A stretch of DNA of 40,462 nt, taken from IMG/VR virus record IMGVR_UViG_3300042389_001102, positions 1 to 40,462 of that record; one strand, written 5' to 3'. Made by a program: the position numbers and the translations under genes. Under the pieces are notes generated by a model. It ran no database searches, was not told where the DNA came from, and worked only from the letters and a program-made list of their open reading frames with translations. This DNA is from a virus. Its lineage: Duplodnaviria > Caudoviricetes. This document shows positions 7,124 to 36,549 of this stretch, one piece after another. Every line of letters starts with the position of its first letter. Position 1 is the first letter of the stretch.

Positions 7124-7127
7124 TTAC

Positions 7128-8060: not shown

Positions 8061-8087
8061 ACATCCTTACTACTTTTTAATCAAAAA

Positions 8088-9065: not shown

Positions 9066-9083
9066 CCCTTACAAATAAAACAC

Positions 9084-10543: not shown

Positions 10544-10545
10544 TC

Positions 10546-11268: not shown

Positions 11269-11951
11269 GTGAACTTGAAATAAGTAACGTAATTCCAATT
11301 GAATTAAAGCCAAAAAAGGTTTTAACAGTTGGTTTATTTGTTCCTGAAAAAGATATACCTAGGCTTTCACGTCAAAACCTGATAAACATTGGTAAGCTAT
11401 ATTTTAGGACCCTTGATGATGGCAGATTTTTTGAACAAGCCGCAATCAAAATGAAGGTTCCTAAGCCACAAAACGCAGCCGAAGCTAAAGTTATTCGGAA
11501 TATGTGTTTGAAAAACTGGGAGGAATTACCAGTAGAAGAGCAATATGAGATTGTGGTTAGGCATCCAAGAAGTATTTTGAACGAATGGATCAGGGAATAC
11601 AACAAAGCTATTCACTTTATGCTAGATGGGAGTGAGATAGTTTCAGCCTTATTAATAAGCGAAAGAGAAAAAGGATTTAGTTTAAGCGCAGATTTCCCTT
11701 TTGTTGAAAATGGAATAAATAGCGTCGCTAAAGTCCGTAAATGGCTTAAAGTCAAAGACCAATTATTTTCAAACCTAGGCGCAGAAGGCTATAAATACCT
11801 ATTTGCAATTGCAGCAGATGAGAAAAGCAAGAAGCTACTTGAGCTTATAGGCTCCACAAACAAAGGTTTTCGCTCGATTAAACAGCTTGATAGTAGTGTT
11901 TATAATGGCAAGATAACAAGATATTCCCAGTATAGATTCAAATTAAAATGA
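11259..11951 (+). CDS. Hypothetical protein, possible GNAT-like C-terminal domain
   Basis: YLFAIAADEKSKKLLELIG pattern; positioned before the ejection genes like T7 gp13/P22 gp14. Confidence 0.4.
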   Translation: MAIGELEISNVIPIELKPKKVLTVGLFVPEKDIPRLSRQNLINIGKLYFRTLDDGRFFEQAAIKMKVPKPQNAAEAKVIRNMCLKNWEELPVEEQYEIVVRHPRSILNEWIREYNKAIHFMLDGSEIVSALLISEREKGFSLSADFPFVENGINSVAKVRKWLKVKDQLFSNLGAEGYKYLFAIAADEKSKKLLELIGSTNKGFRSIKQLDSSVYNGKITRYSQYRFKLK

Positions 11952-11991
11952 GCATTAACAATACAGGCTTTTTCCAACGAGGATTGAGATA

Positions 11992-12708
11992 ATGGGTAGT
12001 AAGAAAAAAGCACCACAAGTAGATCCAAGCCAAGCAATAAACGCCCAGAGAGAGGCTTTAGCGTATCAAGAGAAATACACACCAACTAGTCAAAATTATG
12101 ATTCAGGCGGTTTTGGTTCAACCTTTAGCAGCTTTGATCCTACTACTAAGCAAATCAAGACTAGTGTAAATGCTGACCCTAGAATACAAAAGGGATTAAG
12201 CGATTATCTTGACAGTGCAAACAATTTTGACAATGATGTAAATGCTGAACAGCAAAATACAGATGTTCAAGTAAATGACTTTATAAAATCTCAAATAAAC
12301 AATCTACAAGGTGATTTAGGGCCCGCTGGGCGTGCTAGCTCTAAAGGTGGCTATTATGCTGGTCAATTCGGTAAGTCATTGTCTTATGATGCCCAAAACA
12401 TGAGAGAAGCCGCTCGTCAAAGAGTGGTTCAAAGAAATCAAGATAGATACAACATGTTCTATCAGCCTTATGCAGTACTTGCAGGTAGCGCAAATCCTGG
12501 AATGGTTAATCAAAATGTGGCTGGACTCGGAGCTGGTGGAGCTAGCACTTATAACAATATGGGGCAAACATATTCCAATGCAGCTAACACAAATGCTCAA
12601 TTGAGAATGCAAGCCCGTATGCAGCCCGCACCATGGCAAACAGCGGTGGGTGTACTTGGTGGACTTGGTTCAAGCGCCATTGGAGCATATACGGGGGGTG
12701 GAAGATAA
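11992..12708 (+). CDS. Putative ejection (internal virion) protein, small
   Basis: MGSKKKAP start, Q/N/G/A-rich, Gly-rich hydrophobic C-terminus. Confidence 0.65.
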   Translation: MGSKKKAPQVDPSQAINAQREALAYQEKYTPTSQNYDSGGFGSTFSSFDPTTKQIKTSVNADPRIQKGLSDYLDSANNFDNDVNAEQQNTDVQVNDFIKSQINNLQGDLGPAGRASSKGGYYAGQFGKSLSYDAQNMREAARQRVVQRNQDRYNMFYQPYAVLAGSANPGMVNQNVAGLGAGGASTYNNMGQTYSNAANTNAQLRMQARMQPAPWQTAVGVLGGLGSSAIGAYTGGGR

Positions 12709-13826
12709 TGTCACAAGGAATTCTTCAAGGGCTTCAAATAGGTTCTCAACTTGGCGAGAATATGTTTGGTCCACGCCAAAGAAGACAATTACTTCAATTG
12801 CAACAAGAGGCCGAATTTGAAAGACAAAAACAATTAGCTCAATTCAATTCGGATTTAGCAGAAAACAAAGAAAACAGGCTTTACGACAGAAACGCAAAAA
12901 TCTTAGAGCAAATAATGGGCAGTAATATTCAGCAGCCAGCTAAACAGGGGCTTGCTGAAAGTGCTTTAATGGATTTAGGAGTTAGGGGAGCACCCGCAGC
13001 GCAAGGCGAATATTTAACACCAACACCCAAAGAAGGCGGAGGATTCAGCTTTGCTCCTTCTGGTGAAAAGTTTAACAATCCAGCTGCCAATAGAAGCACT
13101 TATATTGCACCTCAAAGCCTTGGACTTTTAGGGAAACAACAATTAACAGAAAGAGCGGGGCTAGCGCAAGATGCAATCACCAATAATTCTGATTTAATGT
13201 CACCTGCTAGCGTTGACAAGTCAAACAAAGTAATTCAGGCTAATTCTTTGTCTCAGGGCTTGAATGTAATGGGAAATAGCCCTCAAGGTGAACCTCAAGC
13301 TCCTGATAGGCAAGCCCATAAACGGGAATACATTAAAGCTTATGGGCCCGCTTTCTTAAACCAAAAAGGGGGAGTTGCAGCGCTTTTAAAAGCCGAAAAT
13401 GATGATTGGTACAAGAGCCAACAAGACAGCTATAACCAAAAGAAACAACCGCTTGAACTTGAAAAACTAACAAATGATATTGAATTTAATAAGAGGCACA
13501 GAGAATACACGCTTAAGCGTGACAAATTACTAACTGAGCTTGAAAAGGAAATCAATCCGCTAAAGATTAAACAAATAGAATCACAAATTAAGAATCTGGA
13601 CATTAGAAACCAGTATCAAGCTTTGATGTTCCAGAACACGTTAGACAATGGAAGCGCATATAGAGAAAATGTAAATGCTCCAACTTTTAGCCAATCAACT
13701 TCAACAATTGATCCAACCACAGGGGCAAAAATAACGAATACCACCAGAACAAAAGGAGCTCCATCTTCTCAACCCAAGCAAAAACCAGTCATCAACTTTA
13801 ATTACAGTCCAGTTTTAAAGAGGTAG
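12708..13826 (+). CDS. Putative ejection protein, medium (start MSQGILQG)
   Basis: TAATG coupling at 12706-12710; Q-rich helical; positioned between ejection genes. Confidence 0.6.
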   Translation: MSQGILQGLQIGSQLGENMFGPRQRRQLLQLQQEAEFERQKQLAQFNSDLAENKENRLYDRNAKILEQIMGSNIQQPAKQGLAESALMDLGVRGAPAAQGEYLTPTPKEGGGFSFAPSGEKFNNPAANRSTYIAPQSLGLLGKQQLTERAGLAQDAITNNSDLMSPASVDKSNKVIQANSLSQGLNVMGNSPQGEPQAPDRQAHKREYIKAYGPAFLNQKGGVAALLKAENDDWYKSQQDSYNQKKQPLELEKLTNDIEFNKRHREYTLKRDKLLTELEKEINPLKIKQIESQIKNLDIRNQYQALMFQNTLDNGSAYRENVNAPTFSQSTSTIDPTTGAKITNTTRTKGAPSSQPKQKPVINFNYSPVLKR

Positions 13827-13829: not shown

Positions 13830-16800
13830 ATGACTCAAGGCTATATTCCAAATCAAGCAATTGTAAAAAAAGCGGGAACCCCCAGAATAGAAGATGTAAT
13901 GGGGGGATTGTTCAGCCGTGGCCTTTCAGGGGCTCAAGACATTATTAGTGGATTGTCAAACCGTGCAGATGTAAATCAACTTAAGTCAATTCAGGCCGCT
14001 CAATCAATAATTCCTAATAGAAATAATGTTTTAGATGCAAATGATTTATTCCAAAGCGTTTCAGGTAGAGTTTCAGGACAACAAGCTAGAGGTCTAGCCC
14101 AAAAAGAAAATCAATTAGCTTCTCAAGGACTAGTAAGCAAGCTTTCAGATAAAAACAAAATAGTTAATAGAATTGCAAGCGAAGAAGCTAAAAGCATTGA
14201 TTCAGCCAGATTAGATTTAGACAGGCAAGGGAAAGAAGCTTTAACTCAATTTGAGAAGCAATTAAGAGATTCCAATTCATTTGATGACAATGAAATTCAA
14301 GACGCTTTAAATTCTGCAAGAAAGCAAATTGAATTAAAAAATAAAGAATTAATATTTGGAGAAGCAAAAAAAGCTACTCAATTCCTTGACAAAACAGGGG
14401 GGATGAATCCAATTGAGAGCGCATCATTTAAAGGGAATGAACTCACTAGGGCGATAGGTGGACAGCCTTCAATTCAAGCACAAGCATTGCCAATAGCAGC
14501 CAAAGCAGCCGCAATCTATCAAGGTGGCGGAGCTCCATTGGTTAGAACCGCTGGGCAAATTCTTTCAGCTCCTGAAAACTTAATGAAACAGGTAGGCTAT
14601 CAACCAGAAAAGCCAGGGCTATTAAAATATGCTGGTGATTATCTTAAAGGGGTAAATCAGGATGTTCAAGAAAGTCCTCAAGTCCAAATGTTGCAAAATC
14701 AAAACCCTATTATTGCTGGTGGCACTGGACTTGCAGGTGAATCTATTCTTTTTATGATTGCCCCTGAGGGTGCATTAGCAAGGAACGCCGCTGCTTCAAC
14801 AATTAAAACACTTGCAAAAGCTGGAGCTCCTTCAATTGTCAAAAAAATTGCAGGCGCAGCCATAAAAGAGGGAGTCCAAGACGCAGGATTAAGCGCATTA
14901 CAAACTGGAAGCGATTTGCTTTCACAAGTTGACTCAGGAGCATTGACCAAAGAACAAGCATTATCACAGTTGCCAAGTCAATTAGCCATTAATGCAGCTG
15001 GTGATTTTGTAAGTGCTGGTGCATTACGTGGAGCGGGTGATTTAGCTGGTAAAGCATTAAAAGGACAAATCAAACTCCCTGAAATGCCTAAGACTGAGAC
15101 GGTTGGAGGTGAGGGCGGCGCAAATGCTGTATTAGAAAGACCAACTACCGCCAAGCCGTCAAATGATTTCAACATGTCTGAAACTTATAGACAAATTGGC
15201 CAAGAAATGGAGAAAGCGGGCTTGCTTGAACAAGCTACTAAGTTTTACAAAAAAGCGGATGCGAATGATCCTTTATTAGTAAATGCAAAGCTCAAAAAGC
15301 AAAAGGGAATTACCCAAGTTCGAAAAAGGATTGCAGAAGAAGAAGCTAATCTTCAGAAGTCTCAACAGGTTGCACCTGACAATAACATTCCTTCACAGGT
15401 GGACAATTTAGGTAACCAAGCGAAGCCACCGACAGAAACAGAATCGCCCAAATATAAAAACTCGGAATTGGATCGTCCTCAGACATTGGCTCAAGATAGC
15501 AATTTGCGGACAAATACGCAAACACAAGCCCAAGTTGAATTCGCCATAAGGGCAAAAGCTGGACGAATAGAGCAGCTTAACAAACGAATTAAAGGGAATT
15601 CTCTGGAGCTAGCAAACCTAAAAAAAGGCGGTAAGTCTTGGAGAGGTCTTACTACTAAAGATATACCTGCACTAGAAAAGAAAATACAAGAAGATAAAGA
15701 AGCTTTAAAGCAGATTAAAAACCCTTCTCCCGATCTCGCTTATCAATCCAATTTGCGTAACCAACAAACAGGAAATAGCACACAATCCCGTGAAACAATT
15801 CGTCAAAACGAAAATGCCAATACACCCCCACTAAAAGAACAGCAATTAATAAGTGAAGGTATGGGTGCCACCAAGCTCGTTTCTTCAAATGAAAACCTCT
15901 TAAATAAAAACCAAGATAGCAATTTAGGCAAGAATGCGCAAAAAGATTTAAAGAAACAACCCTCCCCAGTTCAAACACCACGCAATCAAGCCGAACTAGA
16001 ACAAACCTACAAAACCACCTTTGGACTTGATGAACCTAAAGCCAAAGCCGCAGCGGTTGTTACTGACAGGATATTTGACACCATTGCAAGGCGTAAAGGA
16101 ATAACAAAAGAAGCTGCTTATGCTGAGGTCGGTTTCAGAAAGAGTAATGTAAGTGAAGTTGGTAAAGGGGCTAAGTTCCAAGGCGCTCAAACAGACACGC
16201 CCGAATTTAAAAACTGGTTTGGTGATAGCAAGGTAGTTGATGAAAGCGGGAAGCCTTTAGTTGTTTATCACGGGGTAAGAAGTGGAAAACAAATTGATAA
16301 ATTCTTGCAAAAGGGCGATTTGGGCTATAAAAAAGCAGATTATTCTATTGCCAAAGCGGGTATCTATTTTACAGACAAGCCACACCTTGCAAAAAGTTAT
16401 GCAGGAGATTCAGGACAGGTAGAAAATCTTTATTTGTCGATGAAGAACCCCCTCGATCTTGGCGAATATGACGCAATGTATTTCAATGGAACAAAAATAA
16501 AAAGCGGATCGCTTATTAATGAAAATTTTAAAAGAGACTTGCAGGGATTGCCAGAACTTCCAGATCCCGACATTATGCTAGAAGCATTGACACTAAAAGC
16601 GAGAAAATGGTTAGAAAAAAATGGATATGATGGCATGGTCGGGAAAAAAGGCGAAATGTATGCTGGGGCTGAATACGTCGCATTAAATCCAACCCAAATA
16701 AAATCAGCCACAAAAAATACAGGTAAATTTGACCCAAATAATCCTGACATTCGCTTTCAAAACGGAAAAGGAGCGATGGAAACGCTTGAAAGCGGCAAGA

Positions 16801-19800
16801 AAGTTATTCACGCTTTAACAGATCCTAATGTTTCCACCCCTTTACATGAAGTCGCTCACGTTTACGAGGAAGTCTTAACCAAGAGTGAAAGAAATACAAT
16901 CCTTAAATGGGCTGGTTCTAAAGAATGGGACGCTAACGCAAGTGAAAAGTTTGCAAGAGGATTTGAAAGGTATTTGAGCGAAGGTAAAGCCCCGATCCCC
17001 GCTTTGAAAGAAATATTTGAAGACTTTAAAGACTGGTTAGTTGATATTTACAAAGGAATTACAGGCTCTGAAATAGATTTAAAACTCAATAAATCAATGA
17101 GAAAAATCTACGATGAAATGCTTGGACGTCCTGACTTGAAAAAGATTTACAATGCAGAATCAGCGACCAAACTAGATATTGATGACCTAGCCAAAACAGC
17201 CACTGAACCAATTGATGATTATGAAAAGGTTATGGCTGAAGCAATGCTTAAAGCTGATCCTCGTTCATTTAGAAGTGGGAAGCCTCCTGATGTTAAAGAT
17301 TGGACTGAATTTCAACAAAAATACAGAAATCCTGAAAACTACAATACGCTTGATAAGCAAGTAGATACCAAGCTTAAGCCACGTCAACAAAATATTATCA
17401 ATGAGCTTGCTAGCACTCAACAAGTAAGAACAAACCTTGATAAAACAGTAAAGAAAGCTAATCGTGAACTCACCAAACTTTTAAAACCAAATGAAAGCGT
17501 AAGTATTCAAGTTGGTAAAAACACTTACACCTTCACCAGAAAAGATACCGAAATAGTTCTAAATGCTAAAGGACAAGCTGAATTACAGCGAGCATTAGAT
17601 GATTTCAATGAAGGAAGAGAGCCAGAACTAAAACAAAGCAAAGACTCGCTTAATGTTCAAGTTAAAAATGTTGAAATCGAAACGCCCAGAATTAGCCAGC
17701 AAACAAAAGAAGGCTTAGCTAATTTCATTGTTGAAAAAAGCTTAAGATACGCAAATGTTGACAAAGAATATGATGCTTTAAAAGTAGAGTTTGACAACAA
17801 TTTCAAGCCAGATGAATTATTCGGCAAAGTTTGGACTGATAAAAATAGCACTGCTACTTTTCACGTATCCAAAGGGGCTTTAAGGGATAGCGACTTCAAC
17901 GAGTTTAAGGCAGCAACCACCAAGGAATTAAAAGGAAGCAAAGCTTTTACAGAAGAAGCAGAACTCAAATATCCTAAAACAGTCAAAGAGGGTCGCTTGC
18001 CACCAACATCAACGAAGAGAGCACAAGAAGCAATTAAACAACGCTTAGACATGGCAGAGGTCAAAAAAGAGGGCGTTAACACGGTTGAAGATATTGAAGC
18101 CATTAGCAAAGAGTTTGAAGGCGTTAAAGAGAAAGTCAAGAAATCTGCTAAAGGTAAATCTTTTGCTGATGCTGGAACAATAATTGCAGCTCTTAAACTG
18201 GCAACAGGTGATCCAGTTGATGCAGTGTTATCAGGTGTTAGAGCATTTGGAGGATTTAACAAATTAGCTGAAAAAACCAAGAGCAAAGGGCTTTATGAAG
18301 CGGCTGAACTTGCTGATGCTTTCTTAGGAATGCAAAGAGGAATTGAAACCCGCTTAATGGATATTGATCACCCAGCCGTTAAAAAATTCAGCGATATTTA
18401 CAAGAAAATGGCCGCTCAAGAATTCACGATTAGAGGCAAAATGAATTCTGCCATTGATGCCAAATTGGTTAATCCTGATGAGTTAGAGCTTGTCAAGAAA
18501 TTCTTTCAAGAGAATAGTCCTGAAACTATTGACGCTTTATTCGCTCAACATGGAGCGATTGAAGGAATCACAAACCCCGCTGCTTATGCCTATGCTGAAG
18601 CAATTAATGATATTAGAAGAGCCAGAAAAGAAGTGTTAGGAGCTATTACTAAATCTAATGCACTTCCTGATAATGCTAAGAAAGCTTTTGAAACCTTGTT
18701 TGCCTTGGATGATTCAGTTTATGGACAAGTTCATAGCAAAGTAAACGCATTTATTAATGACACTGTTTACAAAACCGCTTTAGCCTATAGGTTAACTTCC
18801 ATCCCTACTATCCTTACTGATGTTCCAATGAAGACGGGAACCACTCAAGGATTTAGAAATACAATTGGCGCCGTGGGTGATTTCTTGTCCAAAAATCCTA
18901 AAGTTGTTAATTCAGAGCTATTCAAATCATTCAAAGCGGAAAGAATGGGCAACTCATGGAATCAAGAATTATCAATACTGGCAAAGACAAGTAAAAACCC
19001 AGTCTTTAGAACACTTCAAGAGCTTGCAGGGAAAATCCAAAACAATCCTCTATTAGGAGATTGGTTTAGTAATACGACTTCAGGTATTCAAAACATAGGC
19101 TTAATTGCAATTGCCAAAAGGTTTGAGCAAAAATACAACAAGCTCAACAATACAAAGATTGACATATTCAAAGAATATAACGGCTCTAATGATGTATCCC
19201 GTGAATTTGCTTTGTACGCTAATGAGCAATTAAATGATTTATACAATGCAGGGGTTGGAAGCTTAGCCAAATCAGGCGTATCAGGAAATCAATTACTTAA
19301 ACCTCTTTTGTTCTTGAAGTCTGAAAGTTTGAGATATCAAAATCTTGAAAACAAGTTGATGCAACAAATGAAAACAGGAAGCGAAGAGGTTAAGCGTGAA
19401 GCCTTTTTCGCTTTCACCAAATACAAAATGGCTCAATTGCTACTAGGAGGAACAGCAGCAACGGGAATTGGAGCTGCTAGCAATCTATTCTTAAGCTATT
19501 TAACACCTGAGCAACAAGATAATTACAAAGAGTCAATGAATTATTTGAACATTGGAAGGCTCTTAAATGTTGATCTCACCGAAAAACTAAACTCAGCAAT
19601 CATTCAAAGAAAACCAGGACAAAGTTTTTATGAAGCAGCTAGAAGCACTTTTGACGAAATGAAGAATCCAATTGTGCAAGCTGTACTCAAATTCCCTGAT
19701 GCGATTAACAACTGGGAAAAAGCTCAAAAGAATGGTGATATTGCTGGTCAAATAAAAGCTTTAACAGCACCGCTCCCTTATGCTTCTGGGCTTGGTGATT

Positions 19801-20402
19801 TAATGGCTAAAGCGGTTAGGCAGTACAAAGGAGAATTTCAACCGTTTTACGTCCAAACAGCACCAGGCAAATTTGAACAAAGCGCAAAAGAATTTGAAGT
19901 GTCTGACTATGCTGGTAAGTCATGGAAGATTCATAATGCTCAGGAAATGGCTGATTATGAAAGAGGAGCTAAAGAGTTAGTCATGAAAATTGGAGTTGAG
20001 AAACAGGGCACGCTATACAAATTAACCAAAGATTCGGCTGAGTTGAATTCATACCTAAACGTATTAATCAAGCCTAAGTTTTATAACGATGATCCAGAGA
20101 TGCAAAAAATAGCTAATTTGCCAGATGGAACACCAGCAAAAGAGAGAGTAAAAAATGACATCAAAGCTGAATTGCTTAAATCTGCCTACACCTCAGTTAA
20201 TGCAAAAGCCAGAACGGACGCAGCAAAAGCGCCTGTTTCTAGCCCTGCATATTGGGCAAATGCTAAAGAAGATTCCATCGAAAGCACATACAAACTGTTT
20301 GCAAGAAGCAATCCAGAAAAGGCAAAACAAATTATCAAGGAAGCCCAGAAGATGGCTAGCAAAAACAGAAAAAAAGTACTAGCGAGGTTGACAGCAAACT
20401 AA
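13830..20402 (+). CDS. Large ejected polyvalent protein with ADP-ribosyltransferase and zincin metallopeptidase-like domains
   Basis: FKNWFGDSKVVD..GKPLVVYHG / GIYFT / GYDG / EYVA..PTQIKSA (ART of polyvalent proteins, ~16190-16760); HEVAH (16845-16859) followed by EKFARGFERYL. Confidence 0.8.
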   Translation: MTQGYIPNQAIVKKAGTPRIEDVMGGLFSRGLSGAQDIISGLSNRADVNQLKSIQAAQSIIPNRNNVLDANDLFQSVSGRVSGQQARGLAQKENQLASQGLVSKLSDKNKIVNRIASEEAKSIDSARLDLDRQGKEALTQFEKQLRDSNSFDDNEIQDALNSARKQIELKNKELIFGEAKKATQFLDKTGGMNPIESASFKGNELTRAIGGQPSIQAQALPIAAKAAAIYQGGGAPLVRTAGQILSAPENLMKQVGYQPEKPGLLKYAGDYLKGVNQDVQESPQVQMLQNQNPIIAGGTGLAGESILFMIAPEGALARNAAASTIKTLAKAGAPSIVKKIAGAAIKEGVQDAGLSALQTGSDLLSQVDSGALTKEQALSQLPSQLAINAAGDFVSAGALRGAGDLAGKALKGQIKLPEMPKTETVGGEGGANAVLERPTTAKPSNDFNMSETYRQIGQEMEKAGLLEQATKFYKKADANDPLLVNAKLKKQKGITQVRKRIAEEEANLQKSQQVAPDNNIPSQVDNLGNQAKPPTETESPKYKNSELDRPQTLAQDSNLRTNTQTQAQVEFAIRAKAGRIEQLNKRIKGNSLELANLKKGGKSWRGLTTKDIPALEKKIQEDKEALKQIKNPSPDLAYQSNLRNQQTGNSTQSRETIRQNENANTPPLKEQQLISEGMGATKLVSSNENLLNKNQDSNLGKNAQKDLKKQPSPVQTPRNQAELEQTYKTTFGLDEPKAKAAAVVTDRIFDTIARRKGITKEAAYAEVGFRKSNVSEVGKGAKFQGAQTDTPEFKNWFGDSKVVDESGKPLVVYHGVRSGKQIDKFLQKGDLGYKKADYSIAKAGIYFTDKPHLAKSYAGDSGQVENLYLSMKNPLDLGEYDAMYFNGTKIKSGSLINENFKRDLQGLPELPDPDIMLEALTLKARKWLEKNGYDGMVGKKGEMYAGAEYVALNPTQIKSATKNTGKFDPNNPDIRFQNGKGAMETLESGKKVIHALTDPNVSTPLHEVAHVYEEVLTKSERNTILKWAGSKEWDANASEKFARGFERYLSEGKAPIPALKEIFEDFKDWLVDIYKGITGSEIDLKLNKSMRKIYDEMLGRPDLKKIYNAESATKLDIDDLAKTATEPIDDYEKVMAEAMLKADPRSFRSGKPPDVKDWTEFQQKYRNPENYNTLDKQVDTKLKPRQQNIINELASTQQVRTNLDKTVKKANRELTKLLKPNESVSIQVGKNTYTFTRKDTEIVLNAKGQAELQRALDDFNEGREPELKQSKDSLNVQVKNVEIETPRISQQTKEGLANFIVEKSLRYANVDKEYDALKVEFDNNFKPDELFGKVWTDKNSTATFHVSKGALRDSDFNEFKAATTKELKGSKAFTEEAELKYPKTVKEGRLPPTSTKRAQEAIKQRLDMAEVKKEGVNTVEDIEAISKEFEGVKEKVKKSAKGKSFADAGTIIAALKLATGDPVDAVLSGVRAFGGFNKLAEKTKSKGLYEAAELADAFLGMQRGIETRLMDIDHPAVKKFSDIYKKMAAQEFTIRGKMNSAIDAKLVNPDELELVKKFFQENSPETIDALFAQHGAIEGITNPAAYAYAEAINDIRRARKEVLGAITKSNALPDNAKKAFETLFALDDSVYGQVHSKVNAFINDTVYKTALAYRLTSIPTILTDVPMKTGTTQGFRNTIGAVGDFLSKNPKVVNSELFKSFKAERMGNSWNQELSILAKTSKNPVFRTLQELAGKIQNNPLLGDWFSNTTSGIQNIGLIAIAKRFEQKYNKLNNTKIDIFKEYNGSNDVSREFALYANEQLNDLYNAGVGSLAKSGVSGNQLLKPLLFLKSESLRYQNLENKLMQQMKTGSEEVKREAFFAFTKYKMAQLLLGGTAATGIGAASNLFLSYLTPEQQDNYKESMNYLNIGRLLNVDLTEKLNSAIIQRKPGQSFYEAARSTFDEMKNPIVQAVLKFPDAINNWEKAQKNGDIAGQIKALTAPLPYASGLGDLMAKAVRQYKGEFQPFYVQTAPGKFEQSAKEFEVSDYAGKSWKIHNAQEMADYERGAKELVMKIGVEKQGTLYKLTKDSAELNSYLNVLIKPKFYNDDPEMQKIANLPDGTPAKERVKNDIKAELLKSAYTSVNAKARTDAAKAPVSSPAYWANAKEDSIESTYKLFARSNPEKAKQIIKEAQKMASKNRKKVLARLTAN

Positions 20403-20406: not shown

Positions 20407-22182
20407 ATGAGAACACGATTATCTTTCAATGTCCAGCCCTTGCCAATGTCGCTAACCTCTTTAGTGACTGGTGAAGGCATTAATGCAGCGGTAAGCAGAA
20501 AATCTTTAAACACTGAAACCACAAGCCAATTAAACACTGCTAATAATGTAATTGCCACAGTTGATGGAATCGGCAATCTAACTGAGGACTTAGAAGGGAT
20601 TGGTGTTAAAGAATTAACAGGAACGCTATTAAGCACAGGTATCACCAGAGCGGTCATTCCATTTCCCACCAAAACAGAACCCACCGAATTTTTAATTATT
20701 AAGGGCGGCAATGTTTACAAAATGGGCTCAGGCGGAGGAAATGAAACTCTTCTTGCAAGCGGTGTATTTAGTGCAACAGCTCAAATCGGCTTTCAATATA
20801 ATTTAGGGGGAGTGAGTCAAGAGCGCAGAGTTTATATCTGTGACGGGGTGAACAATCCTAGATACTATAACGGTACAAGCTTGGTCGAAGAAACCCAGTT
20901 TAATAGTCCAATCCTAGGTTTAGGTTTTCCAAAACCCTCAATAATGCCCAGCGAGAATGAAGGGGTTAGAGGAAGGGTACTTTATGGATTCCCTGAAACA
21001 AGCGAATTCAGAAATTTTGTTTTAGCCTCAAAAGAAGGAGATGGAAGCGATTTTACGGTTCCAGGGATTCCAAGCAATATTGATGCTTTCTTTCAAAATA
21101 TATTTCCTTCAGATGGTGGATATATCACAGCATTTGGAGTGCTTAAACAAAGCAATAGCACCTCTGAAACTTGGTATGTTTTTAAGAACAATAACAAGTC
21201 ATACACAAGCAGCACCCCTCAACTAGTGGGCGGTGTGGTAGTGGCTGATTTCAGTTTGTCAGCTAATAATATTGGATGTTCTTCAATGTTTGGAACATTC
21301 GCTTTTAATAATGAAATTTACGCTCTAAATGAATATGGCGTTGGCTCTTTCACCACTGCTACCTCTAGCGGTAACTCAGAAGCATTTGCAACTCAATTTT
21401 CTCAGAGAGTGAATCCACTAATTAGAAAATCCTCTCAAAACGCAGCTTTTAGTAAGTCATTCATCTTGCATTGCCAAGACAGAAACATAATAATGACTTT
21501 TATGCCTGAGCTGAATGCTAATGGGACTTATCAGGGATACTCCTATGGTGAAACCCCAATGAATTATTCAATTCAAATGCAATATGACCTCACAACAAAA
21601 GATGAACAAATTAGAAACTTTTGGTCAACAAGATATGGCAAAGGATGGGGATTCTCTTGTGGGGTAGCATGTGGCAAAAGAATAATTTTAGGCTCTTATT
21701 TTGGGAAAGTATTTGAACTGTTTGGAAGCAATGAATATGAAAGAAATCCTGCGGCTTCAAGTACAGCCGTTCCAATTCGGTCAAAGGTTGAAACTGGTGA
21801 TATGTATTTTGGAGGCTTAGACATTCTCAAATCATTTAATGAGCTGTATTTTCAATGGCAAGGGGTAGGCGGCATTATTGCCGATTTGTCTGTTTTCTTC
21901 AATCAAAGCGAAATCGCAAATGTTCAAGATGTTTATACCAACATAGGCACTAATGCAATAGTCGGACGATGGGATGATTCAAGTTCATTATTATGGGATA
22001 CATTAGGGGGCTGGGCTGGAGTTAGTAAGGTAAACTTAAATCTAACTCCTTCTAATGAAGGTAAATATGTTAGGTTAAGTCTGGAATGGGATTCACTGGT
22101 TGGTGAATTGCCAAATACCGCGTTACTTTCTGGCATGGCAGGTTATTTAACGCTAGGAACTAATACGAGGAATATCCGATGA
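20407..22182 (+). CDS. Tail nozzle / tubular protein B (P22 gp10, T7 gp12-like)
   Basis: 591-aa beta-rich protein with YICDGVNNPRYYNG, NIGC and ETGD motifs. Confidence 0.7.
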   Translation: MRTRLSFNVQPLPMSLTSLVTGEGINAAVSRKSLNTETTSQLNTANNVIATVDGIGNLTEDLEGIGVKELTGTLLSTGITRAVIPFPTKTEPTEFLIIKGGNVYKMGSGGGNETLLASGVFSATAQIGFQYNLGGVSQERRVYICDGVNNPRYYNGTSLVEETQFNSPILGLGFPKPSIMPSENEGVRGRVLYGFPETSEFRNFVLASKEGDGSDFTVPGIPSNIDAFFQNIFPSDGGYITAFGVLKQSNSTSETWYVFKNNNKSYTSSTPQLVGGVVVADFSLSANNIGCSSMFGTFAFNNEIYALNEYGVGSFTTATSSGNSEAFATQFSQRVNPLIRKSSQNAAFSKSFILHCQDRNIIMTFMPELNANGTYQGYSYGETPMNYSIQMQYDLTTKDEQIRNFWSTRYGKGWGFSCGVACGKRIILGSYFGKVFELFGSNEYERNPAASSTAVPIRSKVETGDMYFGGLDILKSFNELYFQWQGVGGIIADLSVFFNQSEIANVQDVYTNIGTNAIVGRWDDSSSLLWDTLGGWAGVSKVNLNLTPSNEGKYVRLSLEWDSLVGELPNTALLSGMAGYLTLGTNTRNIR

Positions 22183-23732
22183 CTTTATCGAGTGTATCGC
22201 CAGACAATACAGGGATCGCCCCTGCAAATCCTGTTCAATCAGCAAATGAATTAGCTTTTAGGTTAGCAGTTGCAAATGCCATTAATGCCTCAAATACGGT
22301 AGTTAATGGGAATTCGCTTGTAATTGACGCAATCCAAAGAACAAATTACATTAGAAGCTTTGATGTAGCTCAATTAAGCGTAGGTGCAAACACAATTGCA
22401 ATATTGTCTAATGCTGTTATTGCCTGGAATAATACAACTGAACTAGAAGTGACAGGATGGCCAGCAAAGACATTTAACACCACAAGCAGCCCAGTTGAAA
22501 TGGCTAACAATTTTGTGGGTTATTTGTGGATTATTTGGGACGGTGCAAGCGTCAAAGATTATGCAATTACAAGCCGCTTAATAGCTCCAGCTGTAAACTA
22601 CTCTTTGCTAGGCTTGTATTCAATTAATGGTTCTGGTGTTGTATCAATTACTTATGCCCTTGAAAGATTCTTTGAAAGTACTCCTAACTATTGGAGACAG
22701 CCTCAAACTTTTTTAGGTGGATTTGATAGACAACCGCCTGTACTTACTGCTTCAGTTGCTGCTAATGCTTTAACTGTTACCGCTGCACGTGGAAGCCTTG
22801 AATTTAGAAATGCAACTTTAACAAATGGAGCAATAACAACTTTATATAATAGCTCGGCTTCGATCACCATCCCCTCAGGAACAACGATTGGAAGTAGTTT
22901 CAGCGATACTTCACCTATCCACCTTTACGCTTTAAACAACGCTGGCACGATTGAATTAGCTTTAAGTCTAAATGGCTTTATTGATACAACCATTGCACAA
23001 TCAACTACCGCAATTAGCGGAGGAACTAATAGAGAATTACTGTATTCAACAACTGCAAGAGCTAGCGTTGCTGTAACTTATGTAGGTAAATTAGTAGCGC
23101 CTCAATCATTCCCTGGTACCTGGGCAACCGCTCCAACAAATGTTAAAACTTGCACTCAGTTTGAAGCAATTAATGATGAGAGATCAGGTTCTAGTTTGCA
23201 GGCTTTTAATACTCGAACCTGGGCTAATTTTGACGGCACTACAGCCGCTAATTTGTTTGGAACTTATTCGCAATCCGCATTTACGGTAACAGTCAATGCA
23301 ACCGCTCACAATCACAAGTTTGGAGATTTAATACAAACTACTATCGGCTCGGGAACAGCCGTTTCAGGAACTTATACTGTTGCAAGTGTAACTGGAGTAG
23401 ATAGTTTTACTTATACAGCCGGTACATCATTAACTACAAGCGGCAGTATAACTCTTAACAGGCGGGCTATTCGGGCTAGTGGAGGCGTGAGGAATGTAAC
23501 TTTTGTCGCAAATGGTGATTATGCCGTTAATTATACTTATGCTATGCCCGATGTTAACGGTTTGCCAATAGTATCAGGGTCGGTAGGCACAAACGGGAGT
23601 TTAATTACCGTTCTTTGTATCCCGGGCACAACCCTTAACGCAAATTACACTCGTATTAATGGCAGCCCTACCGCAAACGGTACAGGCGGACTAGCTAATT
23701 CTTCATATGTCAATTTTGCACTAATCAGGTAA
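22179..23732 (+). CDS. Tail fibre protein
   Basis: T/S/A/G-rich mosaic; WANFDGT...IRASGGV...GDYAVNY C-terminal fibre domain. Confidence 0.75.
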   Translation: MTLSSVSPDNTGIAPANPVQSANELAFRLAVANAINASNTVVNGNSLVIDAIQRTNYIRSFDVAQLSVGANTIAILSNAVIAWNNTTELEVTGWPAKTFNTTSSPVEMANNFVGYLWIIWDGASVKDYAITSRLIAPAVNYSLLGLYSINGSGVVSITYALERFFESTPNYWRQPQTFLGGFDRQPPVLTASVAANALTVTAARGSLEFRNATLTNGAITTLYNSSASITIPSGTTIGSSFSDTSPIHLYALNNAGTIELALSLNGFIDTTIAQSTTAISGGTNRELLYSTTARASVAVTYVGKLVAPQSFPGTWATAPTNVKTCTQFEAINDERSGSSLQAFNTRTWANFDGTTAANLFGTYSQSAFTVTVNATAHNHKFGDLIQTTIGSGTAVSGTYTVASVTGVDSFTYTAGTSLTTSGSITLNRRAIRASGGVRNVTFVANGDYAVNYTYAMPDVNGLPIVSGSVGTNGSLITVLCIPGTTLNANYTRINGSPTANGTGGLANSSYVNFALIR

Positions 23733-23739
23733 AACAAAA

Positions 23740-24288
23740 ATGAAACTATATATATTTAACAGACAAGACGGCTCTCAATCAGCAGAATCCTTTGAAAGTG
23801 AAATCTCTGAAGACATTCTTTGGGTAGGTGAAAACTGGGAACAATTCAAGGAAGAAACAGGGCTTTCACAAGCTGAGATCGGTGGGATTGTTAAGAAAAA
23901 CGGAAAACTTCTTTTTAGTATTGAGAAAAAAGCTGAAAGCGAAGCATTTAAAAAGCCAATTGCAAAAGGGAAAGACCTACTCAATTACTTGATAAAATCA
24001 GTAAGAGCACAAAGCAATCAAGAAGGGCTTAAACCAAGCGGTAAATGTATCAAGCTAAATAGATTTGAAAACATATTCACGAAGTGGAAATTTTCAGATA
24101 CTCTCACGGGCAACATTTGGGGTTACCTGGAAGTAGAAGAAGGTGATTTTACACAAGTTGAATTTGATGATTTTGTAAAAAGTTTGATTGATTCACAGGC
24201 TCTCAATAACCAGAACGGAAAGAAAAATATTGTGGATGCAGTAATTGGATTAATTCAGCAATGGTCGAGTACAGTCAGATTCGTCTAA
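23740..24288 (+). CDS. Hypothetical protein (possible fibre chaperone)
   Basis: 182-aa ORF directly after the fibre gene. Confidence 0.55.
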   Translation: MKLYIFNRQDGSQSAESFESEISEDILWVGENWEQFKEETGLSQAEIGGIVKKNGKLLFSIEKKAESEAFKKPIAKGKDLLNYLIKSVRAQSNQEGLKPSGKCIKLNRFENIFTKWKFSDTLTGNIWGYLEVEEGDFTQVEFDDFVKSLIDSQALNNQNGKKNIVDAVIGLIQQWSSTVRFV

Positions 24289-24568: not shown

Positions 24569-25438
24569 GTGGGAACTGCTTCGGGTTTAGCATTATCACC
24601 AAGTTTTGGGTCAGCTGCTAGCAGCTCCATTCTAGACCGCTTAAGTGTTAGCTCATCGGCTGCTTACTCATTGCGGAAACTAAGAAATGCATACACTGGC
24701 AATGCTATCAGGGTTAGACGTTCGAGTGATAATGCCGAGGCGGATATTGGTTTTACCACCATTGGTGATCTGGACACCGCCGCCCTTCTTACTTTTGTCG
24801 GTTCTGGCAGCGGCTTTGTTACCACTTGGTATGACCAAAGCGGCAATGCTCGCAATGCCACGAAGACCACAGCAGGAGCGCAGCCGCAAATTGTCAATAA
24901 TGGTGTACTTGAAATTGCCAACGGCAAACCCGCTATCAGATTTAACGGGTCAAGCATGTATTTAGGTGGTGTATCCCTTCCACTTTCTCAGCTTACCTTG
25001 TCATCTGTGCTAAATGACGTAACACAAGCACCAACTGTTCGCTATTCTATTGGGACTGGCAGCGGTTCCGTACCAAGGGGAATATTCAGCAGCTTTACTG
25101 GATTCTTTCCGCCAACCCCAAATGCCTCATTGGGATACGTTCCAGACGCAGGGGTTCCAGTAGTGCAGACAGGCTTTTTGCCAACAATAGGACAGTCTTA
25201 TGTTGTGAGCTTAACCACGACTGCGACAGAATCAAACATTCGGGCAAACGGTGGCAATAATGGAACAGGTGGAGTGATCACCCTGAACGAACTTTTCATC
25301 GGTCAACGCGGTGACGGTTTTTGGTATTACGATGGGTATAACTCAGAAACTATCGTATTCCCATCGGCATTCTCCACCACCGACCGTCAAACGCTTGAGC
25401 GTAACCAAGGGCAATACTACGGCATCACCGTCGCATAA
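24569..25438 (+). CDS. Putative head spike/fibre with ConA/LamG-like (arabinofuranosidase-B-like) domain
   Basis: AAYSLRKL...AIRVRRSSDNAEADIGF, FVTTWYDQSGNARNA; visibly GC-richer than its flanks. Confidence 0.7.
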   Translation: MGTASGLALSPSFGSAASSSILDRLSVSSSAAYSLRKLRNAYTGNAIRVRRSSDNAEADIGFTTIGDLDTAALLTFVGSGSGFVTTWYDQSGNARNATKTTAGAQPQIVNNGVLEIANGKPAIRFNGSSMYLGGVSLPLSQLTLSSVLNDVTQAPTVRYSIGTGSGSVPRGIFSSFTGFFPPTPNASLGYVPDAGVPVVQTGFLPTIGQSYVVSLTTTATESNIRANGGNNGTGGVITLNELFIGQRGDGFWYYDGYNSETIVFPSAFSTTDRQTLERNQGQYYGITVA

Positions 25439-28025: not shown

Positions 28026-28310
28026 ATGAATCCAGATGAAATCAACATTGTAGAATTTGGCTTTGGAACTGCTTTAGAAGAATTAAAAGCAGGCTCAAAA
28101 GTTGCCCGCTCTGGCTGGAATGGCAAAGGAATGTTTATATATTACGTTCCCGCTGCATCATACCCAGCACAAACCGAAATAGCAAAAGAGCATTTTGGTG
28201 AAACTGTTCCTTATGGTGCATACATTGCAATGAAAACAGCTCAAGGTAATGTTGTTCCATGGCTTGCATCTCAAACAGATGTACTTGCTGATGATTGGCA
28301 AGTAGTTTAA
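28026..28310 (+). CDS. DUF2829 / Thoeris anti-defence Tad2-like protein
   Basis: FGTALEELKAG.KVARSGWNGKGMF...YIAMKTAQG.VVPWLASQTDVLADDW family signature. Confidence 0.85.
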   Translation: MNPDEINIVEFGFGTALEELKAGSKVARSGWNGKGMFIYYVPAASYPAQTEIAKEHFGETVPYGAYIAMKTAQGNVVPWLASQTDVLADDWQVV

Positions 28311-33536: not shown

Positions 33537-33922
33537 TTCTTCACCTCCATCAATTCGGAATTGTCGTGGGTGTTGCCGATTACTTTTGTTGCAAATGCAT
33601 GAGCAATCGGCAGCGGGGCATAAAAATTCCCTCGCTTTAACTTAAATCCATATTCAAAAACAACCAAACAAGGCTCTTGAAGAGCTACTGCAACATCATT
33701 AGTTACAATATCCCCTTCAAAAATGCGACTTCTATTTGCGTCATACAAGCCTGTAAACTGCCCAACCGTGACTGGGTCTACATAAACCCAGTCAAACTCT
33801 TTTACTTGACCCTTACCAGCTTGAAAATAGATTGCTGGTTGTATGTCATCCGAGTAGACTAATGAGCCATAAGCCCAATTTCCAGAGTTGGTTTTCCCTC
33901 TAAATATTATTTCTCTATCCAT
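33533..33922 (-). CDS. YopX family protein
   Basis: REIIFRGK...W.YGSL...TVGQFTGLYD.N...IFEGDIV...VIGN.HDNSEL. Confidence 0.9.
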   Translation of the reverse strand: MDREIIFRGKTNSGNWAYGSLVYSDDIQPAIYFQAGKGQVKEFDWVYVDPVTVGQFTGLYDANRSRIFEGDIVTNDVAVALQEPCLVVFEYGFKLKRGNFYAPLPIAHAFATKVIGNTHDNSELMEVKN

Positions 33923-34481
33923 TTTTCAACAGCTCCTCTCTGACTTTGCCTTCAAACGGAAAAGAATCAGCTGGGTATTCATCATCAAACAATTTATTTA
34001 AATCGTATTGTAAAGTTTTTGCTCTTTCAGCAATAGCCTTGGCTAGTGGCTTTGGAGGACTAGGAATAATAGAATATTCGGTTTTTATCCCTTCCCCTTT
34101 CTTCGTAACGGTGAAGTCGTAGCCTTCGATTTGAACGCCGTAGTCAGGATTATTGATATATTCTCTGATGCTCTTAAGTAAGCCGATTTGAGTTAAGGAC
34201 AGTATTTTGAAGCTGTCTGAGTTGTAGTCATAGACACAGCAAGCCATAAAATATTGGGGCTTTTGTCCAGGTTTGGAAGGTGGCAACATTGCCAACTCTT
34301 CAAATGTAAATGGATTCTTTTCGAGTCTGGTTAGCTTCATCGTTTTGTCTTCTAGTTTCACGAAGTATTCATAACCAGTGACAGGCAAGCCAATAAAGCG
34401 AAATTTGTTTGTTCCTGCTGTAAATTTTAGAAATTGGTCTTTTTGGTTTGGTAATTGGTAATTTGGATCAAAAAAGTTCAT
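33915..34481 (-). CDS. Putative ssDNA-binding protein (gp32-like OB fold; start MNFFDP)
   Basis: FLKF..G..KFRF, VYDY....KIL, YDFTVTKKGEG.KTEYSIIPSP; acidic DDEYP...PF near the end. Confidence 0.6.
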   Translation of the reverse strand: MNFFDPNYQLPNQKDQFLKFTAGTNKFRFIGLPVTGYEYFVKLEDKTMKLTRLEKNPFTFEELAMLPPSKPGQKPQYFMACCVYDYNSDSFKILSLTQIGLLKSIREYINNPDYGVQIEGYDFTVTKKGEGIKTEYSIIPSPPKPLAKAIAERAKTLQYDLNKLFDDEYPADSFPFEGKVREELLKNG

Positions 34482-34610
34482 TGTATTTTCCCTTTGCGTG
34501 TAATTAATGGGGATTTGGCGCAAGTTCCCCTTCTTGCTGACATTCTAGTTTATAAACGTCTAATGTCCGACGTGGAAGCTTTGGTTTAGGGTTTACCAAC
34601 CCGCCTAAAT

Positions 34611-34877: not shown

Positions 34878-35067
34878 CTTGTCCTCCGTTTATAAATGTA
34901 TGTGTAAATTCTCTATTGTTGTGATTGCCAGACTGAATGGCTCTGTAGCTCCTGAGCTCTGCTTCAATAACGGAAATTGGTCTAGAGTTTTCTAGCGTCC
35001 CCGATTGCATACGCTCTTTTTCAAGCTGATTGATTTTTAAGTCTACGTATAGTGGGTTTTGTGTCAT
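34834..35067 (-). CDS. Hypothetical protein (start MTQNPL)
   Basis: Preceded by the same 30-bp linker as Gly-rich unit D. Confidence 0.6.
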   Translation of the reverse strand: MTQNPLYVDLKINQLEKERMQSGTLENSRPISVIEAELRSYRAIQSGNHNNREFTHTFINGGQVGQRNTTNKLYNSN

Positions 35068-35090
35068 TTTGTTTAATTTGTTTAGGGTAT

Positions 35091-35147
35091 TATTCAAAAA
35101 CAAGGCTCTTGAAGAGCTGCTACAACATCACTAGTTGCAATATCCCC
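35091..35147 (-). repeat. Displaced fragment of a YopX allele
   Basis: 35101-35147 matches 33669-33715 at 43/47 nt; TATTCAAAAA also shared. Confidence 0.9.
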
Positions 35148-35397
35148 CGTCACCATCGCCATAACCATAACCATCGCCCCAGCCATCGCCGTAACCATAA
35201 CCGCCGCACCAGCCATAACCATCGCCATCGCCATCGCCACGACCATTGCCATAGCCTGAGCCGTCACCATTGCCATAGCCTAAGCCATCGCCACAACCAT
35301 CGCCATGACCATAACCATAACCATCGCCATAGCCACAACCTGAGCCTAAGCCGTAGGAATTTTGATTCACCTCAAAATTTATAGTACGTTTAGTCAT
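35131..35397 (-). CDS. Leader + (Gly-X)n protein, unit D (88 aa)
   Basis: MTKRTINFEVNQNSY + GYGDG-type core. Confidence 0.7.
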   Translation of the reverse strand: MTKRTINFEVNQNSYGLGSGCGYGDGYGYGHGDGCGDGLGYGNGDGSGYGNGRGDGDGDGYGWCGGYGYGDGWGDGYGYGDGDGGYCN

Positions 35398-35419
35398 TTT
35401 GTTTAATTTGTTTAGGGTA

Positions 35420-35686
35420 TTAGCCATAACCATTATCACCATAACCGCCGCCCCAGCCATAACCATCGCCGTCACCATTGCCATAGCCATAGCCGTCACC
35501 AAAGCCATCGCCTGAGCCGTAGCCTAAGCCACAACCATCGCCATGACTATCACCATAACCATCACCCCAGCCACCACCACCGCAACCGTTGCCATCACCA
35601 CAACCATCACCATAACCGTCACCACAACCTGAGCCATCGCCGTAGGAATTTTGATTTAACTCAAAATTTATAGTACGTTTAGCCAT
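35420..35686 (-). CDS. Leader + (Gly-X)n protein, unit C (88 aa)
   Basis: MAKRTINFELNQNSY + core. Confidence 0.7.
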   Translation of the reverse strand: MAKRTINFELNQNSYGDGSGCGDGYGDGCGDGNGCGGGGWGDGYGDSHGDGCGLGYGSGDGFGDGYGYGNGDGDGYGWGGGYGDNGYG

Positions 35687-35709
35687 TTTTGTTTGATTTG
35701 TTTAGGGTA

Positions 35710-35967
35710 CTAGCCGTTACCGTAATTGTCGCCATAGCCAAAGCCATTACCATCATAACCATAACCATAGCCACAGCCATCGCCATTACCGTTACCATCG
35801 TTACCATAACCGTTACCATAACCGTCACCATCGTCACCATAACCGTCACCATAACCGTCACCATCGTCACCATAACCGCAGCCGCAGCCGCAGCCGTTGC
35901 CGTTGCCGTTGCCATCGTTGCCGTAGGAATTTTGATTTAACTCAAAATTTATAGTACGTTTAGCCAT
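35710..35967 (-). CDS. Leader + (Gly-X)n protein, unit B (85 aa)
   Basis: MAKRTINFELNQNSY + Asn/Asp-rich core. Confidence 0.7.
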   Translation of the reverse strand: MAKRTINFELNQNSYGNDGNGNGNGCGCGCGYGDDGDGYGDGYGDDGDGYGNGYGNDGNGNGDGCGYGYGYDGNGFGYGDNYGNG

Positions 35968-35971
35968 TTTA

Positions 35972-36247
35972 CTAGCCGTTACCATTGACGTAGCCATAGC
36001 CTGAGCCATAGCCTGAGCCATCACCGCAGCCATAATAGCCACAACCACAATTATCACCATAGCCATCGCCATGGCCATCGCCGTAGCTTAAGCCATAGCC
36101 TGAGCCATAGCCTGAGCCAAAGCCTGAGCCATCGCCATAGCCTGAACCATTGCCATAGCCTGAGCCATAACCTGAGCCAAAGCCATCGCCATAGCCCTTG
36201 TCGTAGGAATTTTGATTCACCTCAAAATTTATAGTACGTTTAGCCAT
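35972..36247 (-). CDS. Leader + (Gly-X)n protein, unit A (91 aa)
   Basis: MAKRTINFEVNQNSY + Ser/Tyr-rich core; overlaps the upstream gene by 19 nt. Confidence 0.75.
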   Translation of the reverse strand: MAKRTINFEVNQNSYDKGYGDGFGSGYGSGYGNGSGYGDGSGFGSGYGSGYGLSYGDGHGDGYGDNCGCGYYGCGDGSGYGSGYGYVNGNG

Positions 36248-36549
36248 TTCGATTCCTCGACTGATAAGGTGAAAACAACTGTTAAGTAATCAAATTCAAC
36301 GAGTCCGTTACATTTATCCAATTTTGTATTTGTTAAAGGGCCATTTTGTGCAAGCTCTCCAAGCCCCCTTGAAGTGCCCCAAGATCTAATAACCGAGGCA
36401 TTGTGCAATTTGCACTCAGAGCCATCTCTTTCAAATCGCCCAATCAGAACGTGCCCTCTTTGCAAAACGCAAATTTTAATATCTCCAGTGGCTTCTGTTG
36501 GTGGATTTTTGTAATACACTTCGCCATTTATTGTTATTGATTCGTTCAT
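36229..36549 (-). CDS. Conserved small beta-rich phage protein (DUF6948-like, possibly Sm-like fold)
   Basis: ICVLQRGHVLIG...L.NASVIRSWGT..GLGELA.NGP...TKLD motif; GAGGT RBS. Confidence 0.65.
   Translation of the reverse strand: MNESITINGEVYYKNPPTEATGDIKICVLQRGHVLIGRFERDGSECKLHNASVIRSWGTSRGLGELAQNGPLTNTKLDKCNGLVEFDYLTVVFTLSVEESKWLNVL

Follow-up and report, generated by a model that had tools for sequence, protein, structure and literature searches.

A predicted Sm-fold gene translationally coupled to (Gly-X)n chain genes in phages, with a four-copy chain array in a freshwater phage

Closest described systems

Phage proteins of the DUF6948 family (PF22253), as yet uncharacterised, are the nearest described relatives of the module treated here, which was found in the linear IMG/VR virus record IMGVR_UViG_3300042389_001102 (40,462 nucleotides (nt), 46% complete, guanine-cytosine content 39%; 'the window' below denotes this whole stretch). 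The module consists of a gene for a small protein with a predicted Sm/LSm fold, here called the ring gene, and of genes for chains in which Gly alternates with another residue, (Gly-X)n. DUF6948 proteins belong to the same family by profile and have the same downstream (Gly-X)n gene, as in Rheinheimera phage barba18A (gp018/gp017), Ralstonia phage NK-7 (XCO36016/XCO36015, 'fibroin heavy chain-like') and Iodobacter phage phiPLPE (gp84), whose chain partner is present but not annotated. The window differs from these loci in possessing four fixed partner paralogs, the synonymous sites of which are no longer homogenised.

More distant likenesses concern one or other part of the module. Among known structures the ring resembles most closely 3BY7, an Sm/LSm-like protein from a marine metagenome, and the eukaryotic and archaeal Lsm rings; to our knowledge none of these has a Gly-X partner. 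Precursor arrays of ribosomally synthesised and post-translationally modified peptides (RiPPs) of the prochlorosin type combine a constant leader with a hypervariable core; the phage module shares this layout, but it has no modifying enzyme and its leader is not conserved family-wide. Hfq joins an Sm core to a Gly-rich, aromatic-containing, acidic disordered chain, through which RNA is released from the Sm core of the same protein; the A. baumannii tail is made of Gly-rich GGFGGQ repeats with an acidic tip, and the E. coli tail has an acidic tip as well (PMC11617691). In contrast, the chain of the window is a separate, amplifiable gene product with a strict period of two, acid throughout and near-random in order, and the phage ring has an added loop-helix insert and none of the Hfq/Sm RNA motifs known to us. 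DSS1/Sem1, an acidic chain of ~70 residues, has been proposed as a mimic of single-stranded DNA (ssDNA) that competes with single-stranded nucleic acid on small β-barrels (PMC6957567), but it is eukaryotic, of fixed sequence and a ligand of OB folds, an analogy only and not a homologue.

No paper on the ring-chain pair or its function was found in the literature searched, which has most subscription journals outside its coverage, and a term search of PMC6715854 gave no hits. The module is a real, undescribed system, whose parts have precedent and whose function is unproven. It is abundant, with an estimated ~1,300 IMG/VR stretches carrying ten consecutive units of one codon variant, and occurs in contigs assigned to many bacterial phyla, and annotation often mis-frames or misses it. 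The window locus adds to this a seven-type accordion array seen in three genomes, a leader kept at the level of DNA, a start-codon statistic, and a test of composition versus order.

The ring gene and its coupling to the chain gene

The features of the locus are listed below in the order of transcription. L002 and L003 are two independently assembled phages whose ring genes differ from that of the window by 2 and 6 nt, respectively, and lengths of proteins are in amino acids (aa).

36229..36549, minus strand: ring gene, 106-aa DUF6948-family protein, predicted Sm/LSm-like β-barrel
36254..36258, minus strand: Shine-Dalgarno-like word of unit A (GAGGA), within the ring gene
35972..36247, minus strand: unit A, 91-aa (Gly-X)n protein, net charge -5; orthologues: L002 unit 2, L003 unit 1
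35710..35967, minus strand: unit B, 85 aa, net charge -11; starts 4 nt past the stop of A; orthologues: L002 unit 4, L003 unit 3
35687..35709, minus strand: A-rich spacer repeat ahead of unit C
35420..35686, minus strand: unit C, 88 aa, net charge -11; orthologue of L002 unit 6, none in L003
35398..35419, minus strand: A-rich spacer repeat ahead of unit D
35131..35397, minus strand: unit D, 88 aa, net charge -9; core DNA as in L003 unit 5 (identical) and L002 unit 7 (99%)
35098..35147, minus strand: 50-nt yopX-derived piece, 46/50 identical to the yopX interior (33666-33715); also in L002 and L003
35067..35087, minus strand: third spacer copy, ahead of the unrelated next gene (start 35067)

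Judged by sequence profiles, the ring gene is a divergent member of DUF6948. The protein itself matches PF22253 below the gathering cut-off (20.6 bits against 27, E 5e-4), 35 of 48 close homologs match it at E<0.01, and hhalign aligned the profile of its subfamily with cut-off-passing members over 108 columns (96.7% probability, E 4e-10), the linking members over the cut-off being the L128 protein (85.7 bits) and P0133 (28.2 bits). DUF6948 proteins also appear among the BFVD fold matches of the ring model and DUF6948 clusters among its ESM Atlas matches, where the chain finds only unnamed viral clusters. The family comprises 1,334 clusters at 50% identity. The module has no match in PHROGs, PADLOC, NCBIfam or Rfam, and matches to TrAA12 were set aside as low-complexity noise.

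An AlphaFold2 (AF2) model of the ring protein (predicted local distance difference test score, pLDDT, of 90) forms a five-stranded barrel of the Sm type with middling scores. Its best structural match is 3BY7 (Z 8.9, root-mean-square deviation 2.5 over 72 residues, ~19% identity), it scores Z 8.0 against Lsm1-7, Foldseek E values begin at 2e-3, and Sm/LSm chains make up most of its top 50 structural matches. There is no sequence-level match in the PDB. A pattern search, as distinct from a structure-based mapping, for the Sm1, Sm2 and Hfq YKH motifs as we know them gave 0, 0 and 0 of 48 rows and 1, 0 and 0 of 112 rows, respectively. The domain is near neutral (median charge +1), contains a Gly-rich loop-helix insert, and strongly conserves Arg31, Gly32, Trp33, Arg55, Trp57, Gly58, Thr59, the Gly-Leu-Gly helix start, Asp78 and Trp102. 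Two matched stretches occur in 20 of 150 homologs among those listed, 19 of which proved on reading to be true tandem duplications, and P0121 (624 aa) contains six tandem DUF6948-like domains, with P0226 and P0257 as related two-domain proteins; a search for loci of the two-domain form gave none. Since two- and six-domain homologs exist, the ring would be an even-numbered oligomer, likely a hexamer.

The pairing of the two genes is tight in both directions. A Gly-X open reading frame (ORF) starts within 60 nt in 90 of 91 distinct ring loci (111 loci minus five duplicates and 15 with <150 nt downstream, nine re-fetched copies having been dropped beforehand), and the sole exception is a truncated gene. 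Conversely, among loci found from the DNA repeat (120 minus three duplicates and 49 with <450 nt upstream), a ring gene precedes the tract in 58 of 68, with a nested start in 38 of the 58. The classical subfamily agrees, having a clear tract in 16 of 18 viral loci (some of them near-identical), with one very short tract and one cut off; the tract is likewise present at L126, L128 and L129, and not at L127. No third gene, looked for within 1.5-3 kb, recurs in more than 7 of 143 loci.

The junction itself bears the mark of translational coupling. In the window the ATG of unit A is formed by the Lys-Trp codons of the ring gene, unit A overlaps the final 19 nt of the latter, and at 90 of 99 loci with a tract the chain start codon is made in the same way by the base before the terminal Trp codon. 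This base is A at 82 loci, G at 21, T at 2 and C at none, against A 38, T 37, G 14 and C 13 at internal Trp codons, and Shine-Dalgarno-like words lie ahead of 40 of 90 nested starts as opposed to 0 of 102 internal Trp codons. The terminal Trp is doubly constrained, as it is kept inside two-domain proteins as well. The initial annotation had proposed a two-component module with an Sm-like partner, and had added that in phages the DUF6948-like family is often followed by one GYGDG-rich ORF; the linkage counts, the nested starts and the predicted fold all bear this out, and the module is two-component, translationally coupled and undescribed. A programmed -1 frameshift fusion was rejected, given that downstream units start on their own and that a Shine-Dalgarno sequence lies ahead of the nested start. 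On a quick tree of the ring, loci with the same type of leader group together (16 changes against 49 when shuffled), a pattern explained by linkage and not counted as co-evolution.

Composition of the chain and the build of the array

In close relatives the chain cores span 24-190 aa (median 68) with a median alternation of 0.98, and their X positions are occupied by Tyr (37%), Asp (24%), Asn (21%) and Ser (8%), with Cys and His at ~1% each. The cores are 48% Gly and 19% Tyr with a median Lys+Arg content of 0, and the net charge is negative in 85 of 85 complete peptides (median -9). The chain thus has the composition of a nucleic-acid mimic, net acidic, with aromatic residues and with basic residues excluded, and it is also Tyr/Gly-rich and predicted to be disordered (pLDDT 33 for unit A), as is a FUS-type prion-like domain. 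The order of X residues was indistinguishable from shuffled sequence at lags 1-4 in 71 tracts, and the spread of their aromatic share was near binomial (share 0.43, standard deviation 0.108 versus 0.096 for a binomial); in a second sample of 110 tracts it was somewhat wider than binomial (share 0.44, spread 0.125 versus 0.092). A gene selected for composition and not for sequence, in effect a statistical copolymer, is unusual in itself.

Within a locus synonymous sites are usually uniform, 82 of 94 tracts having >90% or <10% C-ending X codons and 81 of 94 having GGC as the majority Gly codon; between loci they flip en bloc, with the Gly-[YDNS] pattern retained and the X letters mixed. Synonymous switching with the peptide pattern kept indicates selection on the peptide, and we take the chain to evolve in concert through hexamer slippage while its composition is under selection. 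Turnover can be followed in cultured Rheinheimera phages, where the tract is at least 99% identical in 79 of 115 records and four aligned variants show one X change or in-frame indels (length changes of +6 and +42 nt), a comparison indicating that it is real but not extreme. The variation is not that of a diversity-generating retroelement: X codons vary at the first base (T, G, A), the second base is mostly a fixed A, and His stays at ~1%; no reverse transcriptase recurs as a neighbour at these loci, whole genomes of relatives not having been searched. Two further candidates were discarded. A (Met-Ala)n frame, open in 79 of 83 cores, is not a real frame, its openness following from the codon pattern. 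A C-terminal aromatic residue (60/87; Trp in 23/87 versus 0.3% of internal X) is a subclade trait, seen near the clade of the window, and no family rule, as an unbiased sample has mostly other ends (3 Tyr and 2 Trp of the LQRGW type among 34 scored) and 0 of 16 array units end in this way.

Other architectures of the tract were noted in passing. L146 (2587-3282), L173, L200, L226, L242 and L244 fuse it to a 150-aa C-terminal domain with a conserved His/Cys motif, present in 5 of the 18 classical loci of the sample and, for L146, without a Pfam or NCBIfam match. At L163 (2761-2979) and L185 it follows an N-terminal domain that weakly resembles TIGR02996 (16.6 bits, under the cut-off), and L111 and L113, from one delta-proteobacterial bin, have irregular Gly/Tyr/Asp/Cys partners of ~230 aa in which strict alternation is largely lost.

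The window itself contains 11 runs of at least five Gly-X dipeptides in six frames, all within units A-D. The four tandem genes first reported from the sequence were found intact at these coordinates (85-91 aa), each with the leader M(A/T)KRTINFE(V/L)NQNSY and the first overlapping the ring gene as described, and the counts agree with cores of 76, 70, 73 and 73 aa (A-D) that place Gly at about every second position (45-52% Gly, alternation 0.89-0.93) and differ in composition: A has 9 Ser and 13 Tyr, B has 12 Asp and 11 Asn with GCGCGC, and C and D have two Trp each. No structure was predicted by AF2 for unit A (pLDDT 33). These units depart from the family rule in that their synonymous sites are not homogenised (Gly codons GGC 81, GGT 57), Cys (3-4 per unit), Phe and Trp are present and the terminal aromatic is absent; they retain an aromatic fraction of 0.15-0.20 and an acidic fraction of 0.09-0.17. 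Intact frames in slippage-prone DNA had been considered remarkable; the intactness stands, for the frame is kept in 16 of 16 units of the window, L002 and L003, but it needs no special explanation, since slippage of a 6-nt repeat preserves the frame.

These 16 units (seven in L002, five in L003, four in the window) fall into seven types, 51-73% alike between types, and the window (types 2, 4, 6, 7) and L003 (types 2, 3, 4, 5, 7) are both ordered subsets of L002. As independently assembled phages share the types and their order, the array is no assembly artefact; on sequence comparison it is real and accordion-like. Units A, B and D are represented in metagenome contigs from three DNA runs, no contig spans the whole array, and one DNA run has no cover over part of unit C and carries the L003-type insert; coverage was judged from contigs, and the best run may be the source sample. 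Two RNA contigs are too weak to show expression. The insert, an extra non-repeat segment between units 1 and 2 (L003:3573-3640), is also a loose end in run X5.

How such units are gained and lost is suggested by the leader. At its codons 3-8, 11 and 12 all 16 units agree down to the synonymous sites, and codons 2, 9, 10, 13 and 15 change amino acid; synonymous identity at codons 3-8 next to amino-acid change at codons 9-10 points to DNA copying. Together with the A-rich spacer (3 occurrences of its motif versus 0.02 expected) the leader forms identical direct repeats of 45-70 nt, which would be the crossover points at which units are added or dropped, so that the near-invariant leader of this array is likely to be mainly a DNA repeat serving recombination. 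The third spacer copy is likely the source of the spacer captured at unit duplication. The 50-nt yopX piece, which contains a small hairpin and is read in another frame to supply the last codons and stop of unit D, and the spacer before an unrelated gene are both signs of local copying. The leader had been held to dock on the ring protein or to be processed with it. As a universal, defining property docking is not supported, given the DNA-level identity here and the variety elsewhere (leaders of 4 to >30 residues with no shared motif in 58 unbiased loci; 4-10 residues in the classical group, and small domains or basic tails among the leaders and C-termini of other groups); it may hold locally in the subfamily of the window, where alone an N-F-[E/D] motif is kept with synonymous variation.

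Arrays are the exception, a single unit being present within short flanks in 57 of 58 unbiased loci. Separate ones occur in other lineages, namely L090 (seven units, on another branch of the quick tree than the window), L147 (eight, classical subfamily), L152 (three) and L154 (two). In L147 (2790-4900) the array uses GGA codons, and the start of most units is nested in the final codons of the preceding one.

Possible functions and genomic setting

We tentatively favour a reading in which the window holds a four-copy amplification of a widespread module whose acidic chain is a separate tail, resembling single-stranded nucleic acid, that binds the ring. It is the universal Sm-fold partner together with an acidic period-2 chain, in view of the Hfq and DSS1 precedents, that favours such a detached tail. 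A Gly-X tail carried in frame by 2 of 278 proteins, and transcription of both genes in the first temporal cluster of barba18A, also count in its favour. Selection would act on composition, namely Gly alternation, ~43% aromatic residues at X, the presence of Asp and the absence of Lys/Arg, whereas order would matter little; the core and not the leader would be the universal working part. In early or mid infection the chain, held and protected by the ring, might compete for single-strand-binding surfaces, either on the ring, in the manner of the acidic Hfq tail acting in cis, or on host RNA/ssDNA-binding proteins, and in the lineage of the window the 45-70-nt leader-plus-spacer repeats would let recombination add or drop units and so increase both the dose and the variety of the chain. 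A bolder form of the idea, which we regard as unlikely, is a phage-encoded mimic of random-sequence single-stranded nucleic acid, its Tyr, Asp, Asn and Ser letters reshuffled by hexamer slippage at fixed composition, loaded and protected by a repurposed Sm ring, with arrays extending the jamming to a wider range of host single-strand sensors or nucleases. Each side chain of a Gly-X dipeptide comes with six backbone bonds, as many as one nucleotide has. A true decoy for single-strand-binding defences would be a new kind of counter-defence.

Several observations weigh against the detached tail. Ten of the 68 Gly-X tracts have no detectable ring gene, and a few ring genes (L120, L127, L159) have no tract. 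The 110 tracts of the second sample, which were chosen by their DNA, show slightly more even-lag matches than expected (0.39 versus 0.355; z 4.5 and 4.1 at lags 2 and 4), a small signal of 12-nt duplication, so that the order is not purely random. A near-neutral ring (median +1) lacking the RNA motifs known to us fits poorly with a strong polyanion binder, and its middling structural scores (Z 8.9, Foldseek E 2e-3) show fold, not function. Hexamer slippage by itself can yield a strict period of two, which silk-like or amyloid models would predict as well. A fixed 1:1 tail sits poorly with one ring gene per 4-8 chain genes, and amplification of the chain without the ring fits a consumed decoy or building material better. 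In-frame fusions of the two are rare (a Gly-X tail on 2 of 278 proteins, possibly undercounted as the longer-homolog searches scored few candidates), and may be frameshift products. In barba18A, where we identify gp018 as the ring and gp017 as the chain, both transcripts fall into cluster 1 and are highest at the first two time points, with log counts per million at t1 of 13.0 and 10.1, respectively (PMC9305737); before any correction for length, counts for the chain gene are ~8-fold lower than those for the ring gene. These data are on transcription in a relative.

The main rival is a builder of condensates, gels or amyloid, in which Tyr stickers and Gly spacers self-assemble, with the ring as nucleator or multivalent hub, into a body that protects the nucleic acid of the phage or captures factors of the host. 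Selection on composition only, a narrowly kept aromatic share, predicted disorder and many chains per ring gene all accord with this, and G/S-Y-G/S repeats drive FUS condensates (PMC8409303). On the other hand, a median net charge of -9 opposes self-assembly without cations or a basic partner and sticker-spacer behaviour does not require a strict period of two, leaving the proposal on the unlikely side, though it is the one to be taken most seriously beside the tail; a true condensate builder would provide a compact phage model of sticker-spacer behaviour. Alternating Gly chains recall the K+ channel filter and EF-hand-like loops, so that a polymer binding cations or anions in backbone cups, with Asp, Cys and His as ligands, is conceivable, and Asp in 70 of 71 tracts, 3-4 Cys per window unit and the median alternation of 0.98 point that way. 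It is nevertheless improbable, as Asp-Asp-Asp and Asp-Asn-Asp triplets occur about as often as in shuffled sequence (z 0.8 and 0.1), Dx[DN]xDG motifs number 0-1 in the window units, Cys and His are each ~1% of X family-wide, and the partner is left unexplained.

Roles might also be reversed, the ring being the effector, e.g., a sponge for nucleotides or RNA that counters host defence, with the chain as regulator, timer or plug. The strong conservation of Arg31, Arg55, Trp33, Trp57, Thr59, Asp78 and Trp102, the Gly-rich loop-helix insert, the tandem-domain ring forms and the Tad2-like protein encoded by the same phage are in line with this, yet neither PADLOC nor NCBIfam returns a match and amplification of the chain gene rather than the ring gene goes unexplained, so that we consider it quite doubtful. 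If the tract mattered as DNA or RNA, as a recombination hot spot or a repeat bound by the ring with the peptide a by-product, this would agree with the perfect synonymous homogenisation inside most single-copy tracts, with the strong GGC bias (majority codon in 81/94), and with the binding of repetitive RNA by Sm rings; however, synonymous letters differ between loci with amino acids unchanged, the nested start codon, Shine-Dalgarno sequence and in-frame leader are kept, and so is the frame in 16/16 array units, which makes this very improbable. Scarcely any weight attaches to a RiPP-like precursor family modified by the ring or a host enzyme, one of the options first raised. The constant leader, variable cores and several precursors per partner in arrays resemble such a family, and Asn-Gly and Asp-Gly are prone to succinimide formation, but no modifying enzyme, protease, transporter or other third gene is linked in more than 7 of 143 loci, leaders are as short as four residues and unconserved family-wide, no cleavage motif is present, and we know of no catalytic Sm fold. 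The notion of an S-adenosylmethionine sink, in which deamidated Asn-Gly sites would feed host repair, was discarded because a lytic cycle leaves too little time for it. A cultured host-phage pair carrying the module (barba18A, with 115 related records) makes these readings directly testable.

As to its setting, the phage of the window derives from lake and freshwater metagenomes, and the module lies on the minus strand amid small early/middle genes, with a helix-turn-helix gene, an ssDNA-binding-like gene (33915-34523) and yopX as neighbours and a replisome organiser across the strand switch; promoter and terminator counts are at chance level. Elsewhere in the window, a Tad2-like (Thoeris anti-defence 2) protein is encoded at 28026-28310 on the plus strand (Pfam PF11195, 97.6 bits), and a 2190-aa protein (13830-20402, plus strand) has an ART-PolyVal ADP-ribosyltransferase domain at residues 804-967, the remainder being without a Pfam match. 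The long plus-strand genes at 18-13826 and 20407-24288 mostly have no Pfam match at E<0.001, indicating a divergent structural module. A 289-aa protein (24569-25438, plus strand) matching the arabinofuranosidase B catalytic (lectin-like) domain with 39 bits is possibly a tail or receptor-binding part.

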